A stretch of DNA of 62,420 nt, the filler included, from Globobulimina sp. (taxonomy: Eukaryota): the NCBI GenBank assembly GCA_003354225.1. It is 22 parts of 22 records of this genome, joined end to end, with 100 filler letters (N's around TTAATTAATTAA, not from the genome) between each part and the next. Parts side by side here need not be neighbours in the genome. Positions count along the whole stretch, not along the records: positions 17,059 to 19,800 come from PIVH01005111.1; 21 more parts are not named here. One strand, given 5' to 3'. The notes below the pieces were generated by a model. It ran no database searches. It saw only the letters and a list, made by a program, of their open reading frames with translations, and was not told where the DNA came from. Below are positions 5,587 to 22,116 of this stretch, piece by piece (position 1 is the stretch's first letter; every line of letters starts with the position of its first letter). The position numbers and the translations under genes were made by a program.

Positions 5587-5686
5587 NNNNNNNNNNNNNN
5601 NNNNNNNNNNNNNNNNNNNNNNNNNNNNNNTTAATTAATTAANNNNNNNNNNNNNNNNNNNNNNNNNNNNNNNNNNNNNNNNNNNN

Positions 5687-15343: not shown

Positions 15344-15459
15344 TCCAAGTGTATTTATATTTATATAATCAAAATACACCAAGTTTCATGAATAAGAAAG
15401 ACATAGTCTATAAGTTATTACTAGACTGTCTAGACACAATTTTGTACCAAAGCTAATCT

Positions 15460-16958
15460 TTGTATACAAACCCAAATCCACAATCTATTAAATGTTGTTC
15501 ATGCGCAGCGATGATTAGTTTGCAAGAATTAGACATAAATTGCGATAAAATACCATTTTTCAGTGAGTGGTTTTGCAAACAATGTATTACAATGAAAGGA
15601 TGTAAGAATTCATTCAAATGCGATATTATTGATTGTAAAGCAAATAAAAAATGTTGGCAGAGATTCAGTACATTAACAAAACACATCGTCCATAATATTG
15701 ATGATGCCAACCATAAAAATTCAAAATACTTTGCAGCCTTTGACCAAAAATTATGTTCAACCCACGAATGTGTCAATATTTTAACCAAAAGCGATCCGAA
15801 CGATAAATGTCCGAAATGCACTAAACAAAATACATTGGCCATATTTAATAATTTAAACAATCCAATCCCTACGGATATGGATGATAAGAAAGTAAATTTA
15901 ATACACGAGGATGTAGCAACTGTGCAAAATCAAAACTCATTGACCCAAACACCCTCATTCAATAATATCTGGTTTAGTAAACTTAAATGGATTGAAAATA
16001 TCCCATTCCGTTTTTGCAAATTAATCTGCAAAACATTCACGACGTTAATATGGAATGTAACCAATAAAAACGACGTTGTTTCATGGCTTAGTTTGGCGTT
16101 ATTTGCACGCGTTGGATTAGCCAAATTTAAACGGGGCGGAAAGCATAATTATCGCCGCAATCATAACACAATAAAACAACGAATGAAACGAATCGCAAAT
16201 GGTGAGATTATTAATATGTTTAATGAGATGATTATTGATTTAAAAAACAGTCAAAATGCAGCAAATACCCAAAAAATTAACGGTGACTCCTATCGATGTC
16301 TCAACGGCAAAATATCCAAAAAAATGAAAAGCAAAATTAAAAAATTGATCGAACGCGGCCATACAAGGGACGCATTGAACGTAATTGAAAGTAATGGTAT
16401 TGCCGACCTCAATGACCCCGAAAAAATGAAATTATTAAAACAAAAATTTCCGACGGGGCAATACATTGAAAAACGCCCAATTTTGGAGAAACATCAAATA
16501 AAATCCATTGAATCTGAGCAAATTGACAAATTTATAAATAAATTAAATGACTGCGCAGCCCCCGGCATTATTGGCCTATCAAATAACCATATTATACAAT
16601 TATGGAAACAACGCAGTGGAACCGAATTAGACCGTGCCTTCAAAGCACTGTTTAAGTTAATCATTAACGGCAACATTAATACCTACGTCGCTCCATACAT
16701 TAACGGAGGACGGTTAGTGCCAGCAAATAAAATTAAAAACGGCATATGCTGTGACATCCGACCAATTATAATAAGCAATTCCATCGTAACATTATCCACA
16801 ATGATTGGTATTGACATTGCTTCGGACCAAATAAAATTAGCCATCGATCCAACTCAGATTTCTGAGGAACGTTCCGGTGCTGAAGCGATGATATTAAGTA
16901 TGGAAGCGGCGTGCAAATTTATTAAAATCAATCCGGAATACATAATTGTTCAGAAAGA
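15460..16958 (+). mobile_element. CRE/SLACS-like (R2-group) non-LTR retrotransposon ORF, 3' truncated by the contig end
   Basis: N-terminal Cys/His zinc fingers, then RGGK, G...A...ESNGIA, LKQKFP, RT domain 0 APGIIGL, domain 1-2 GRLVPANK..DIRPIIIS, and Q..GAEA. Confidence 0.8.
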
Positions 16959-17058: not shown

Positions 17059-18247
17059 CTTTGAATGCAGCAACATATAAAAAATAAGATAATAACGGAA
17101 TGATTAAAATGCCGCACCAACAATATATAAATATAGCAAATGTGGTTCTATCTTCGACAATAAATGTTTGCCTCTCTTGATACGTTGGACACTGCCAACA
17201 ATTTCGAATGGAAACGTACGTAAAAAATGTAATAAATCCCATCACAATGAAATTCATCGAAATTCTGTAATACAGCAAATTCATCGTGATGCGTTCCGCC
17301 GACTTATTTGCTTTGGAAATGGTCATTGACACCAAACCAAACAAGTATTCATATCGCTTAGTTTTAATAGAGACAGTTAAAAAGATGATGGATTCCACGA
17401 TAACATATAAAAATAAGTACCATCCACCCAATGCCAACCACAAAAGGGCAGATACAAATATTCTGCAGGAAACGTCCAAAATGCGCCAGAAATAACGAGC
17501 CAAATACAACCAAGAGATGCACGAAAACGATTTAAAAGAAGCAATATCTTTTTTAAATTGCATGTTTTTGGCGCGGTCAATGGAAATCATACGGTCATCA
17601 GACACTATTTTGCCAATAATGCTGCTCAAACTAAATAATAATGAAAAAACCACGGTGGGCGAATTTCGAAATGAACCCGTTTTGATCAAATAGATGGTTT
17701 GGATTAGAGATTGCGGACTTGATTCGAAGATTGCTTCTAATGAAGTGATCCAACGTTGAGGAGAACACGGATTAGCTTTGTCGCACAAATAATTAATGTA
17801 TAATGTTCGAAACAGTTCAAAATCGAGAAACTGTAAAATAAATCTGCTCAACATTTTGGTTGCTTGGAATATAATAAATGCTGAAACGACGCGGTAGAAT
17901 AATAAGGTGAATACTGATAAGATGAATAAATAATTCATGTTTAAACCGCCACATTGTGAGGGTACTGTTGTTGCCGCTAACTGCCCAAATTGTATTACGA
18001 CTGAAATATCAGTAATTTGGTCCATTAAATGAGTTAAAACTGGTATGTAACATTTACGTCGTTTGTAGATATCGAATGTAAATAATTTCAATTTACGGAA
18101 ACATGATGAGTTTTGGAACGACTCGTCGAATTTATTCAGAAAACGATAAGAATAAACGCTTGTGCATATCAAAATTACTACGTAGATACATCCAAACACG
18201 ATTGTTCCTGAAATTCCAATGCTGTCAGAGGTTGAACACTCTGCCAT
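17059..18247 (-). CDS. XK-related multi-pass membrane protein, 3' partial
   Basis: DQITDISVV and LEAIFESSPQSLIQ match XK/Xkr signatures; many TM segments. Confidence 0.7.
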
Positions 18248-18457
18248 GATGAATTGGAATGGTGGTGAAAACTTTTTTGACAATCAAAACATCACATATT
18301 CGTATACAACATATTGTGAAACGTCAAATATCAGATTAATTGTTCAATTTCAAGTTTCATTGTGTATAAACTATAAAGTAAAATTAATTAAAGACACAAA
18401 ACAATAACGTATATTTGAGTTTGCATCACTAGAATGGGTGCACTTATATTAAAGCAC

Positions 18458-19800
18458 TCATTCTGTGATACATTTAACGTCATCATTAAACAACACACAT
18501 CCAATAATATCCGATGCATCCAAGCCACGGAAAAACGAATCTAAAGCAGTTTGTAATATATCCCATCGCTTTCCACTCATAGAACCACTTTTATCCAACG
18601 AGAACAACACTAAAAATTTCTGCCTTTCCGGTTGCAAAAATAATCGATTCTCACTCATAAGCACAGCATTCTCTCCATCTGAAACAGCCAAAACTCTCCT
18701 TTGCAGACCAACATTGATTTTAATTCTTTCAAATACATGATGTAAACCAACATCTTGACAATGATGTAACTCCGCTGCATCCCCCGCAATATCAGCAATA
18801 TTTTGTAATGCGGCTTTTTCTGAGACGCCCAAATCAATGCCAATAAAAAAGGTCTTCCCGTAAGCAGCGCCAAGTTTAGCTCCAATCAATTGAAACATAT
18901 CTTTGATTTCTTGTGGAGAGTGGCTTGATTTATTATCCATACCGTCGGTCAATACGATATGAATAAATCTATTAATATGTTATACAAAATAAAGTAATTA
19001 TAAATCAAATATCATATAAACTTAATCACACAAGTTGGATATATACAAAACTGATGTCCAATCACGTCGTACTTATTAAGAATCATTTTCAACGCAAACA
19101 TCTTTACCAAACCATAAATTACAGCATCTCTCAATGCTGTTTGTCCGGAAGGTGTCTGCTGTTTTAATGACCGTAAAACACTCGCTTTCTTGCTATCGGT
19201 TGCAATCCAAAAGCCACATTGTTCGACGAGTAGGTAAGACATCACACCGCCTACAATACGCTTCTGTTGATGTGTTAATCCAACCTCTGAGCCATGATTC
19301 GTGCGTGGCGGTGCTTGAACGACTACCACCGGTTTTGTTGGAGTGTTGGTTGAGGGTTTTGTTGTGGTTTCGCCATCATTGAGCGCAGACGCACAAATCG
19401 CAACACATGCGACGCAACACGGCATTCCAACGATAATGACAGAGATAATGAGTCCTGTGTGTTATGTGTGTTATGTGTTATGAGTAGAAACGTATTTTGC
19501 CAAATAACATTTACCTGTTTTTGTCCAATTCACAGCATTGTTAAAATCATCATTCATTGCACACGTGCTGCCACCAAATGTATTGTCTAAATTGATTAAA
19601 TAAGCACCAATATGCGCAAATAATATCAAGTATATCAATAATTCAACAATTAGGGAACATCCAAGCGTGCGAGACACAAATTCTTCACATTGATTATAGC
19701 AACACCCCAAAAGACACGCCCATATACAGGCAAATAGAGGGACTGATGATAATGCGGCAAATTCTCCTTCATTTGGTTGTATGATGCCGATATTTGTTGG
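18458..19800 (-). CDS. Membrane protein with a circularly permuted VWA domain; 3 exons, 5' partial
   Basis: Introns at 19455-19514 (phase 1, GTAAAT..CAG) and about 18971-19052 join the TM region to GQTALRDA, IVLTDG, FFIGID and a C-terminal LDKSGSM. Confidence 0.8.
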
Positions 19801-20350: not shown

Positions 20351-22045
20351 TTATTTTTCCCAGCAAAAAGTCCCATTCCAGTCCATGAAGCCTTTAACAC
20401 GCTTTTTTTCATAGAATTCTTTGCCAAACGCAGATTGTTTAAAACGTTTCAAATGAAAATTGACGACACTCTGATATGCCTCTGAACAATTACTATTAAT
20501 ACGCTTCACAAATTTCATTCTTTTTTCCTTTCGTAATGGAAATTTTAATTTGTTTACATTGTCAGATAAATGAATACAAAGTATATCATGAAAAGCATCA
20601 TAAACTTTCTTCCTATTTTTGCGTCGATTATTTAACTTTGAGACATCATGAACGAAGGGATAATATACGATGGATGGATCAACAATATATTTGAAAAACA
20701 TTTCATACTTTCCCTCATTCGCTCTGATACACGAATGGCGCTCTAAAAAAGTGTTAAATAAATGGCAACCAATCTCATTAATATTTAAGTAAGAAACATA
20801 ACATTTAAATCGAAACATCGCATGCTTGCTATTACGGATATAATCAATGAGAGCAGTCGCAAAATCATTAGTTTGTATGGGCATAATATATAAATCAGTG
20901 TCCAGTGGTGATAATAATTGAGATTCGAACTGAAACGCATAGAAACAATGCGAGATTGCAGCAAATTGGAAATACCATTCATTGCCATTTATGTGCGGCA
21001 AATGCCATTCAATGTATGTTATGATATCTTGTTGAATGAAATCATTTAATCCATTTGCAAATAAATGCATATCATTGGCACTTCGCGCAAATAAATGGTC
21101 GTAAATATAAAAATGATCAAAACCGTGAAACCTATGAAATTGAATAAATTCACGAATTCTGAAAAGTGATTCATTGTTTTTGTCGCCAAAGGGATGGATT
21201 ACAACACAAGCACTCAATTCATGTTTGTATTTTATTTTTGTCTCCATTCTGCAAACTGGGATTGTCGAAAAATGCATTGTTAAAATGTATTCATTTATAT
21301 TTCGATTGTTATCCATGTCAATATCAAACAGTGTAACGCCGAGATTCAGATTTGAATTCGACGATAATTTGTGGGGAATATTACATTTTACAATGAAATA
21401 AAATTGATGCAACCGCGGTATCTCAGTTTTTTCCGATAAAGTTACAGTTCCATCATTTAATATGCATAGAAATTCCTTTTTATATAGTTTGAGAATTGCG
21501 GATTTAACGAGAGTTGAATCAGAATGATAGCCAGAAACGTAAATCCATACATTGTTATTGCGTAAAATTGCAAATGCTAAACACGTTAATGATTGATAGG
21601 AAATAAAATATTGTCTTATTTTTTGGGAATTATTTTCTTTTTCGAAGTTAAATAACTTTTTGTAATCGATATTATTAATGCCATTCAAAATTGGTTTGAA
21701 ATGTGATAATGCGGATATTGAGGAACACGTTTCTTGGTAGTTTGGATTATTCCAATTGATCATAGCAGAGAGTTGGGACAACAGTGATGTATTTGTGTAT
21801 AAGTACTGCCAATTTTCTTTGTTACCCTTTGATTTTGTAAGTTGACAGAGATTGTTATACCAAACATTCAATTTCGAGACTATTTGTGGATCCATTTTCC
21901 AATATATTGGCAGTGGCAAATGATAAAATGTGATCAAAGGATCGTTGTTAACCTCGAAATCATTCAAATACAAATTATACAATATAATACAACAACTCAT
22001 GCATATTATTATTATAAATGTCAATAAATATATCACTACTGACAT
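20351..22045 (-). CDS. Glycosyltransferase family 92 (DUF23)-like type II membrane protein
   Basis: N-terminal TM, LSACV, EFIQFHRFHGFDHFYIYD, Q.AAI.HC, a DxD motif (DTD) and KYIVDP. Confidence 0.8.
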   Translation of the reverse strand: MSVVIYLLTFIIIICMSCCIILYNLYLNDFEVNNDPLITFYHLPLPIYWKMDPQIVSKLNVWYNNLCQLTKSKGNKENWQYLYTNTSLLSQLSAMINWNNPNYQETCSSISALSHFKPILNGINNIDYKKLFNFEKENNSQKIRQYFISYQSLTCLAFAILRNNNVWIYVSGYHSDSTLVKSAILKLYKKEFLCILNDGTVTLSEKTEIPRLHQFYFIVKCNIPHKLSSNSNLNLGVTLFDIDMDNNRNINEYILTMHFSTIPVCRMETKIKYKHELSACVVIHPFGDKNNESLFRIREFIQFHRFHGFDHFYIYDHLFARSANDMHLFANGLNDFIQQDIITYIEWHLPHINGNEWYFQFAAISHCFYAFQFESQLLSPLDTDLYIMPIQTNDFATALIDYIRNSKHAMFRFKCYVSYLNINEIGCHLFNTFLERHSCIRANEGKYEMFFKYIVDPSIVYYPFVHDVSKLNNRRKNRKKVYDAFHDILCIHLSDNVNKLKFPLRKEKRMKFVKRINSNCSEAYQSVVNFHLKRFKQSAFGKEFYEKKRVKGFMDWNGTFCWEK

Positions 22046-22116
22046 TATTCGATATATGTTTTTAATCAAAAAGCGTTAGTGAAGTAGAAACATTTTATAC
22101 TTTAGAATATAAGATA

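Follow-up and report, generated by a model that had tools for sequence, protein, structure and literature searches.

The stretch of DNA analysed here (the window, 62,420 nucleotides) comes from Globobulimina sp., assembly GCA_003354225.1. It is made of 22 contigs of 2740-2743 bp each, chained by spacers of structure N44-TTAATTAATTAA-N44, which account for 42 runs of 44 N and recur every ~2.84 kb (2744-2843, 5587-5686, etc.). The adjacency of contigs on either side of a spacer is meaningless, and the DNA past 17058 or 19801 is no neighbour of the gene described below. This gene lies on the minus strand of the 2742-bp contig occupying positions 17059-19800 (PIVH01005111.1). It is spliced, expressed and ends at its TGA stop codon, and the C-terminal half of its product is very likely a VWA (von Willebrand factor type A) domain whose elements are arranged in a circularly permuted order.

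Gene Structure and Expression

The 5' end of the gene is lost at the contig end (19800) and about 50-60 codons are missing, as judged from two relatives, P0150 and P0002. The visible coding sequence is spliced into 1200 nt, encoding 399 residues and a stop codon without internal stops, and both of its introns are of the GT..AG type (Table 1). Short introns of this type occur along the window, where G+C is ~0.26-0.43. The junction near the strand that precedes the TDG motif was chosen among in-frame donor-acceptor pairs, one of which reproduces the sequence of the relatives there. The product is colinear with these relatives: residues 11-399 align with residues 54-445 of the 446 of P0150 (42% identity, E 1e-99), and the product also aligns along the length of P0002 and P0001. 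Exon by exon, P0150, P0001 and P0002 match the first with their N-terminal parts, which contain several helices; residues 108-278 of P0150 cover 19623-19048 by tblastn; and the last aligns with P0150 277-445, P0001 308-477 (of 486) and P0004 145-311 (of 315).

Public contigs of four runs were aligned to the contig of the gene, three of them RNA-like (X6, X7 and X8) and one DNA-like (X1). The 83-nt skip that corresponds to intron 2 is present in all three RNA-like runs and not in the DNA-like one, and the contigs that carry it have 36-255 letters on their shorter side. The 60-nt skip of intron 1 is found in two of the three RNA-like runs (X6 and X8), and X1 record 6 covers the same intron unspliced. 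Both introns had been proposed in a preliminary description of this DNA, made from the sequence alone, and are thus borne out by the spliced contigs. The same description had delimited the coding segments as 19012-19425 and 18458-18952; these are indeed co-spliced, as single contigs hold both (X6 record 11, X7 record 17), but the borders of the exons are different (Table 1).

The end of the gene is covered as well. Two RNA-like contigs, X7 record 16 (18338-18556) and X8 record 24 (18348-18556), extend ~100 letters to either side of the stop codon without any joint, showing that the gene does not continue past 18458 by an intron. The insertions and deletions listed near the stop in the RNA-like runs are small differences between strains, all located below 18458; among the single-letter differences from the public contigs, of which 40 out of 140 were listed, the bases of the stop codon are only partly covered. 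The summed depth drops sharply between 18255 and 18346, and the next gene, which starts at 18247, has a much lower depth.

Two variants were observed in the DNA-like run. One X1 contig has 32 other letters in place of most of intron 2 (18980-19067), and one lacks a single base at 18473, five codons ahead of the stop. These variants may be allelic, paralogous or assembly errors.

Table 1. Features of the permuted VWA gene and of its product, in the direction of transcription.
Feature	Position	Strand	Remarks
Exon 1 (first visible, 5'-partial)	19800-19515	-	Two hydrophobic helices and a Cys-containing loop
Hydrophobic helix 1, product residues 16-34	19755-19699	-	In exon 1
Hydrophobic helix 2, product residues 46-64	19665-19609	-	In exon 1
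Intron 1, 60 nt, GTAAAT...ACACAG, phase 1	19514-19455	-	Splice sites; 60-nt skip in X6 and X8
Exon 2: last hydrophobic helix, Pro/Thr-rich linker, N-terminal helix, MIDAS Thr motif, start of α3	19454-19052	-	
Hydrophobic helix 3, product residues 97-115	19452-19396	-	In exon 2
SGQT (MIDAS Thr motif), product residue 198	19149-19138	-	
Intron 2, 83 nt, GTTTTG...TAATAG, phase 2	19051-18969	-	Joint 18968->19052 in X6, X7 and X8
Exon 3: β4 with TDG, α4-β5-α5-β6-α6, ~27-residue linker, moved piece, stop	18968-18458	-	
TDG, product residue 237	18949-18941	-	
Moved piece (β1 with DKSGS, α1, β2, β3), corresponding to the first third of VWA domains in normal order	18616-18461	-	Pfam VWA 2-51 of 174
DKSGS (DxSxS), product residue 355	18595-18581	-	
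Stop codon TGA	18460-18458	-	
Probable 3' untranslated region	18457-18338	-	RNA-like contigs continue from the coding part without joint

Order of the VWA Motifs in the Product

The product contains, in this order, three hydrophobic 19-mers, a Pro/Thr-rich linker, the SGQT motif, TDG and DKSGS, and it stops ~40 residues past the last of these. All the residues of the metal-ion-dependent adhesion site (MIDAS) of VWA domains, namely DxSxS, the Thr and the Asp of TDG, are thus present, but DxSxS follows TDG by 118 residues. In the 399-residue product, the region from the hydrophobic helices to the GxT motif is devoid of DxSxS. These motifs, their minus-strand positions and the absence of an upstream DxSxS are as first described, and so is the presence of a membrane region, as the product has these three 19-mers and is colinear with four-helix relatives.

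When the open reading frame (ORF) of the last exon was compared with Pfam, its residues 124-170 matched positions 2-51 of the 174-position VWA profile (E 1.7e-5, 25.6 bits for a cut-off of 23.8). This last piece is all that Pfam recognises in the product. The first exon in the window has no Pfam match.

The Permuted Order Is Conserved in a Family

Relatives were searched with the last-exon ORF using phmmer among 1.84 billion cluster representatives, and the search gave 149 at E<=1e-3, with values of 1e-10 or better for 78 of them and of 1e-30 or better for 9. Most of them match query residues 4-172 in a single stretch, and many end close to the end of the match (proteins of 315, 352 and 310 residues match up to 311, 351 and 310, respectively). 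Pfam VWA (PF00092) matches 55 of 60 family members. When permuted order was defined as TDG followed by DxSxS 95-140 residues further on, 74 of the 149 relatives were permuted, 18 had the normal order and 57 were fragments or undecided. Such a recurrence, like the Pfam match above, indicates that the order is not due to chance. Forty of the 74 permuted members have chains that extend no more than 70 residues past DxSxS; the tails of long-tailed members consist of other domains or of low-complexity sequence. An upstream DxSxS is additionally present in two of the 74, P0014, where it belongs to a serine run, and P0075, where it is at residue 12, ~175 residues before TDG.

Those members of the permuted family that have a named source belong to three foraminiferal genera (Rosalina sp., Nonionella stella and Bolivina argentea), the others being environmental or transcriptome records. 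Further homologue searches gave 10 rows with P0004 75-315 and at least 12 with the family alignment, without any wider taxon range, and a lookup of P0017 in a protein atlas gave only ordinary bacterial VWA clusters (0.88-0.90). All named members of the family that keeps the permuted order are foraminifera, and normal-order relatives exist in other protists, one of them (P0143) in the chrysophyte Chromulina nebulosa. For four permuted members (P0012, P0151, P0152 and P0168), the longest contig recorded in ENA is 10,578 nt each, which hints at a tandem paralogue array.

The possibility that a degenerate β1 with DxSxS follows the last membrane helix, so that a complete first domain would be followed by a truncated second one, was considered and rejected, because the matching part of P0150 (167-191) is modelled with a predicted local distance difference test (pLDDT) score below 50 and because short members (P0017, P0010, P0015) begin only ~40 residues before GxT.

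Sequence Evidence for a Circular Permutation

The clearest evidence comes from alignments with normal-order relatives, in which the two parts of the domain are swapped. In P0082, DxSxS is at residue 27. Residues 77-257 of the permuted P0004 align with P0082 56-237 (E 1e-25), and its residues 248-313 with P0082 4-69 (E 9e-10). The same swap is visible on the DNA of the window, where P0082 125-215 matches 18970-18692 and P0082 8-67 matches 18652-18473, and in the spliced product, where residues 158-322 align with P0082 53-215 and residues 331-395 with P0082 2-67.

This pattern is not restricted to P0082. A hidden Markov model (HMM) of the family, built from 12 permuted members, was run on 13 normal-order domains, single and doubled in tandem, the doubling being the classical way to test for a permutation. 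Twelve of the 13 single domains match as two swapped pieces, and the remaining one matches by the large block only. Once doubled, seven of the 13 give one continuous match over the junction, including P0082 (HMM 22-250, 133 bits), and six remain split at the linker. Known VWA profiles and structures behave similarly: in P0001, Pfam VWA 34-155 is found on residues 235-371, ahead of VWA_2 2-53 on residues 430-477, and the family profile matches the solved chain of ITIH1 (6fpy) with positions 214-263 on chain residues 281-330 (E 3.1e-10 for the chain).

By BLAST, residues 56-69 of P0082 are matched twice, and the permuted linker aligns with both the C-terminal and the N-terminal extensions of P0082. 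The double match and the homology of the linker correspond to the pattern predicted by a tandem duplication followed by trimming; the double match is only suggestive in this respect, because the overlap seen with the HMM is just ~3 residues.

Predicted Fold and Metal Site

AlphaFold models were made with family alignments for P0004 and P0150. The P0004 model has a pLDDT of 80.5 and a predicted template modelling score (pTM) of 0.74, with means over 10-residue blocks of at least 88 for residues ~81-230 and at least 87 from residue 261 to the end. The P0150 model has a pLDDT of 76.7 and an identical order of elements: helix, short strand, α2, α3, β4, α4, β5, α5, β6, α6, linker, and then a strand-helix-strand-strand unit. 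In both single-chain models this C-terminal unit, β1-α1-β2-β3, follows α6 and is predicted with a pLDDT above 90, reaching 95-98 in P0004. A three-layer α/β fold with a six-stranded sheet is found on the predicted models of the relatives.

When the P0004 model was aligned with 48,161 chains using VIA-align, model residues 89-234 superposed on residues 322-459 of ITIH4 (9c4f chain I) with a Z of 9.5 and a root-mean-square deviation (rmsd) of 2.6 Å over 136 residues. ITIH1 (Z 9.4) and 4fx5 (Z 9.0) also ranked near the top, these three having rmsd values of 2.5-2.6 Å over 127-136 residues, and Rpn10, TFIIH p44, integrin I domains and VWF A1/A3 were found further down. The VWA rows inspected (ITIH1/4, 4fx5, Rpn10, LapA, BchD) span only model residues ~88-235, which correspond to the later part of a VWA domain, as exemplified by Rpn10 (63-192 of 192, on model 91-231), LapA (64-193 of 194) and BchD (58-189). 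Single-domain Rossmann-like chains, such as 3rag and the CARF domains of Can2, Card1 and Csx1, align from model residue 139 or 145 through 315. These alignments are consistent with a model in which β4-β6 and the C-terminal piece belong to one compact domain.

The metal-site residues are strongly conserved. In a 59-row alignment, no row lacks the Asp or either Ser of DxSxS or the Asp of TDG (59 of 59 each), and the MIDAS Thr is found in 51, with six rows gapped at that column; in a 60-row alignment, the MIDAS residues are found in 57-59 rows. That residues ~160 positions apart are kept together fits one working metal site.

These results give the following arrangement. After an extra helix and a short strand, the domain runs through α2, α3 with the MIDAS Thr, β4 with TDG, and α4-β5-α5-β6-α6; a linker of ~27-30 residues then leads to β1 with DxSxS, α1, β2 and β3 at the end of the chain. 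The C-terminal piece would fold back into the middle of the sheet of its own chain, and a single metal site would be built from residues ~160 positions apart. A true circular permutation, the first reading given in the preliminary description, is thus supported by the swapped alignments to normal-order relatives, by the swapped Pfam and PDB profiles and by the AlphaFold models, and we consider it very likely that this architecture is a genuine circularly permuted VWA domain.

Membrane Anchoring and Proposed Function

Anchoring to membranes appears in several forms in the family. Among the 74 permuted members, seven start with MG, and 19 have a CaaX-like or double-Cys (CC) motif at their end. 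A hydrophobic C-terminal tail follows the domain in 15 members, and N-terminal hydrophobic helices precede it in four. P0154 has Met-Gly-Cys-Cys ahead of its first helix, and in the P0150 model four long helices precede the domain, with a pLDDT of 50-74. Domains fused to the permuted one include MBT repeats, SAM, ZZ, CCCH fingers, PLAC8 and TMEM151; two members have N-termini that look UBA-like by eye.

Prenyl, myristoyl and tail anchors are all located on the cytosolic side of membranes. The lipid anchors and the fused domains of the family point to a cytosolic domain rather than to one acting in extracellular adhesion, and the four helices of the P0150 model would place both ends of the chain in the cytosol. 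The VWA domain thus probably faces the cytosol. One possibility is that the protein of the window is held in the membrane by a claudin-like four-helix anchor, and its relatives by myristoyl, prenyl or tail anchors, the Mg2+ site docking an acidic residue of a partner protein and recruiting this partner to the membrane. Such a function as a membrane-tethered, Mg2+-dependent docking domain of the cytosol, proposed by analogy with other VWA domains, is an even call. Taken as a whole, the best explanation we can offer, and a likely one, is that the gene encodes a membrane protein of several passes with a genuine, circularly permuted VWA domain as its C-terminal half.

Origin of the Permuted Family

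A tree was built on a shared 130-residue block (133 columns) from 57 permuted rows, including that of the window, and 15 rows of normal order; the other proteins among the 92 classified were left out because their block is incomplete, and the permuted group had been defined beforehand by the motif rule. The 57 permuted rows all group together, with a Shimodaira-Hasegawa-like approximate likelihood ratio (SH-aLRT) support of 94, and this group also contains a single normal-order row, P0102, whose branch length of 2.99 is flagged as unreliable. The other 14 normal-order rows are outside this group. A tree in which the permuted rows form one clade has a log-likelihood 14.8 units above that of the free-search tree, and an approximately unbiased (AU) test p of 0.71. 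A single origin of the permuted family is not rejected and is the simplest reading. The family could have arisen once, by tandem duplication of a normal-order gene, after which the first copy would have lost its first third and the second copy its last two thirds.

Prokaryotic loci were also compared, using the best 80 of 110 relatives found among 600 pattern matches. The permuted order was found in none of these 80 loci, and 77 of them match the middle block only. Two loci, L015 and L022, from Heimdallarchaeota metagenome-assembled genome contigs, contain both pieces in normal order with 29-40% identity, and they are the only ones of the 80 with the DxSxS piece.

Points Against the Interpretation and Alternative Explanations

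Several points weigh against the interpretation of the gene as a membrane-anchored, permuted VWA domain. The folds are predictions for relatives, the identity of which to the last exon is 54% for P0004 and 51% for P0150; both models predict the linker with low confidence (P0004 238-258, P0150 376-388); and the place of β1 in the sheet, like the metal-site geometry, is deduced from confidence values and aligned ranges. A Foldseek search against the PDB gave no VWA row, the best row being 3rag_A (E 9e-5, template modelling scores of 0.32/0.41), and 3rag is also the top row of VIA-align, with a Z of 10.7 but an rmsd of 5.9 Å. We attribute the absence of VWA rows with Foldseek to the alignment of a permuted chain in chain order. 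In ITIH1, the second stretch matched by the family profile (positions 56-101 on chain residues 354-396) is weak when taken alone (4.8 bits). As for the anchor, 30 of the 74 permuted members, many of them fragments, have no anchor signal by crude rules. The likeness to Claudin / PMP-22 / EMP (PF13903), which concerns the anchor only, comes from a Claudin_2 match in a relative, P0002 (E 2.6e-6), with a score of 27.8 bits that is below the Pfam cut-off of 29.1, and the piece present in the window has three hydrophobic helices, a missing 5' end and a first exon without Pfam match. Finally, the assignment of X6, X7 and X8 as RNA is a guess, backed only by their spliced joints, which are absent from X1.

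Among the alternatives, the one that survives best is a split domain completed in trans, in which β1-α1-β2 of one chain would insert into a neighbouring chain to form metal-dependent head-to-tail dimers or polymers on the membrane. The permutation would in that case make the VWA domain a module of two parts: the C-terminal piece, to which three of the metal's five ligands belong, would leave its own chain and complete the domain of a neighbour, and Mg2+-dependent chains could form on the cytosolic face of foraminiferal membranes. Such a strand exchange is sterically possible, given the length of the linker (~27-30 residues) and its low confidence in both models, and the typical membrane tethering of the family would favour this kind of assembly. 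However, the single-chain models already accommodate the C-terminal piece with the high pLDDT and the pTM reported above, and the linker shares homology with the extensions present at both termini of normal-order relatives, as a simple tandem fusion would give. Moreover, the two ends of a normal VWA domain are close together, and closure within one chain needs no long reach. We therefore regard completion in trans as improbable.

A second alternative is that the domain is not a VWA domain but a Rossmann-like one, of the 3rag or CARF type, with MIDAS-like motifs acquired by convergence. It finds some support in the fact that the best structural rows are those of 3rag with both programs and that CARF-type chains align over model residues 145-315. 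Nevertheless, 3rag has a high rmsd and is not among the 30 PDB sequence matches, both halves of the domain are significantly similar in sequence to VWA proteins (by the two P0082 alignments, by the Pfam matches in the family and by the ITIH1 match), and a permuted VWA domain aligned in chain order is expected to resemble other three-layer α/β domains. Convergence on a Rossmann-like scaffold is thus very improbable.

The least probable of all, and already largely refuted, is a pair of truncated tandem VWA domains, due to a gene continuing by an unseen intron, to a pseudogene or to an assembly artefact: the contig is only 2742 bp long in a window made of a chain of such contigs, and one DNA-like contig has the 1-nt deletion at 18473, but the reading frame is intact, RNA-like contigs are unspliced across the stop, and, ~210 bp further downstream, the contig already contains the start of another gene. 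The gene also ends where its relatives end, the termini of transcriptome-derived members of three foraminiferal genera lying no more than ~14 residues from this point, and a scan of six long-tailed members gave no second VWA match beyond the moved piece in any of them.

Comparison With Known Systems

Our preferred reading, a true circular permutation, makes this domain a relative of the canonical VWA or integrin I-type domain (PF00092), the nearest solved structures being ITIH1 (6fpy) and ITIH4 (9c4f chain I). The MIDAS residues are the same, and the predicted α/β fold is alike when judged on the model of a relative (Z 9.4-9.5, rmsd 2.6 Å, 135-136 residues). In contrast, the canonical order, with β1-α1-β2-β3 first and then Thr and TDG, is not found here, where this unit follows α6, and an extra N-terminal helix and the linker of ~27-30 residues are added. 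As a descendant of VWA (superfamily PF00092 / PF13519) that has retained the metal site and departs from the defining chain order, it is a permuted variant and not a new fold. The VIT-vWA cassette of ITIH proteins is also different, as no VIT domain is matched by Pfam in the ORFs of the window or in 15 relatives and as the domain is probably cytosolic here instead of secreted.

Another comparison is with the normal-order protist sisters (P0082, P0086, P0143, P0111, P0115, P0148), in which the family-specific motifs are found around TDG.D..S, as is the helix that precedes the linker. Their identity is 29-32% over both pieces, and they keep DxSxS at the N-terminal side. They appear to be cytosolic by WWE-like and FYVE-like motifs, which were read by eye only.

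Few protein-docking modules are used as widely as VWA domains, which are found in integrins, complement, the proteasome and TFIIH, and to our knowledge textbook descriptions of them give one chain order only. The permuted form described here occurs naturally, is conserved and expressed, and can be compared with normal-order relatives, which makes it a clean example of how duplication and truncation can permute a domain. In integrin I domains, the C-terminal helix passes on the switch between open and closed states; as the equivalent helix is an internal element here, the family could show to what extent the regulation of VWA domains depends on a free C-terminal helix. It is currently mis-described, annotation pipelines detecting just a 50-residue VWA fragment. 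No description of a permuted VWA domain was found in open-access papers and bioRxiv, subscription journals being outside the search, and a permuted VWA family of this kind has apparently not yet been described.

A natural permutation of another three-layer α/β domain of the nucleotide- or metal-binding kind has been reported in protists: the CPRas proteins (cpRAS) contain a circularly permuted RAS-like GTPase with the motif order G3-G4-G5-G1-G2 (Elias and Novotny, 2008; PMC2430557). As in the present family, the first motif-bearing strand-helix unit has been moved to the end (PMC2430557). The permuted domain is however the GTPase in that case and, in the passages on VWA, the adjoining VWA domain is described without any mention of its permutation (PMC2430557). 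CPRas proteins have their permuted GTPase N-terminal of the VWA domain, and no GTPase family was found in the product or ORFs of the window or in the 15 relatives scanned by Pfam.

Other Open Reading Frames of the Window

Downstream of the VWA gene, on the same contig and strand (17059-18247, minus), lies an intron-less ORF that runs off the contig end and encodes a multi-helix membrane protein. It has no Pfam match. Its language-model features are nearest to clusters of XK-related proteins (Xkr, a lipid-scramblase family), with a score of 0.91 and 210 of 256 features in common, and RNA-like contigs are present on it at a lower depth than on the VWA gene. On other contigs, the plus strand contains a 500-residue open frame at 15457-16956, which continues up to a spacer and gave no match to Pfam at E<=0.001, and the minus strand contains a long ORF at 20354-22075 that matches glycosyltransferase family 92 (PF01697, E 2.5e-12).

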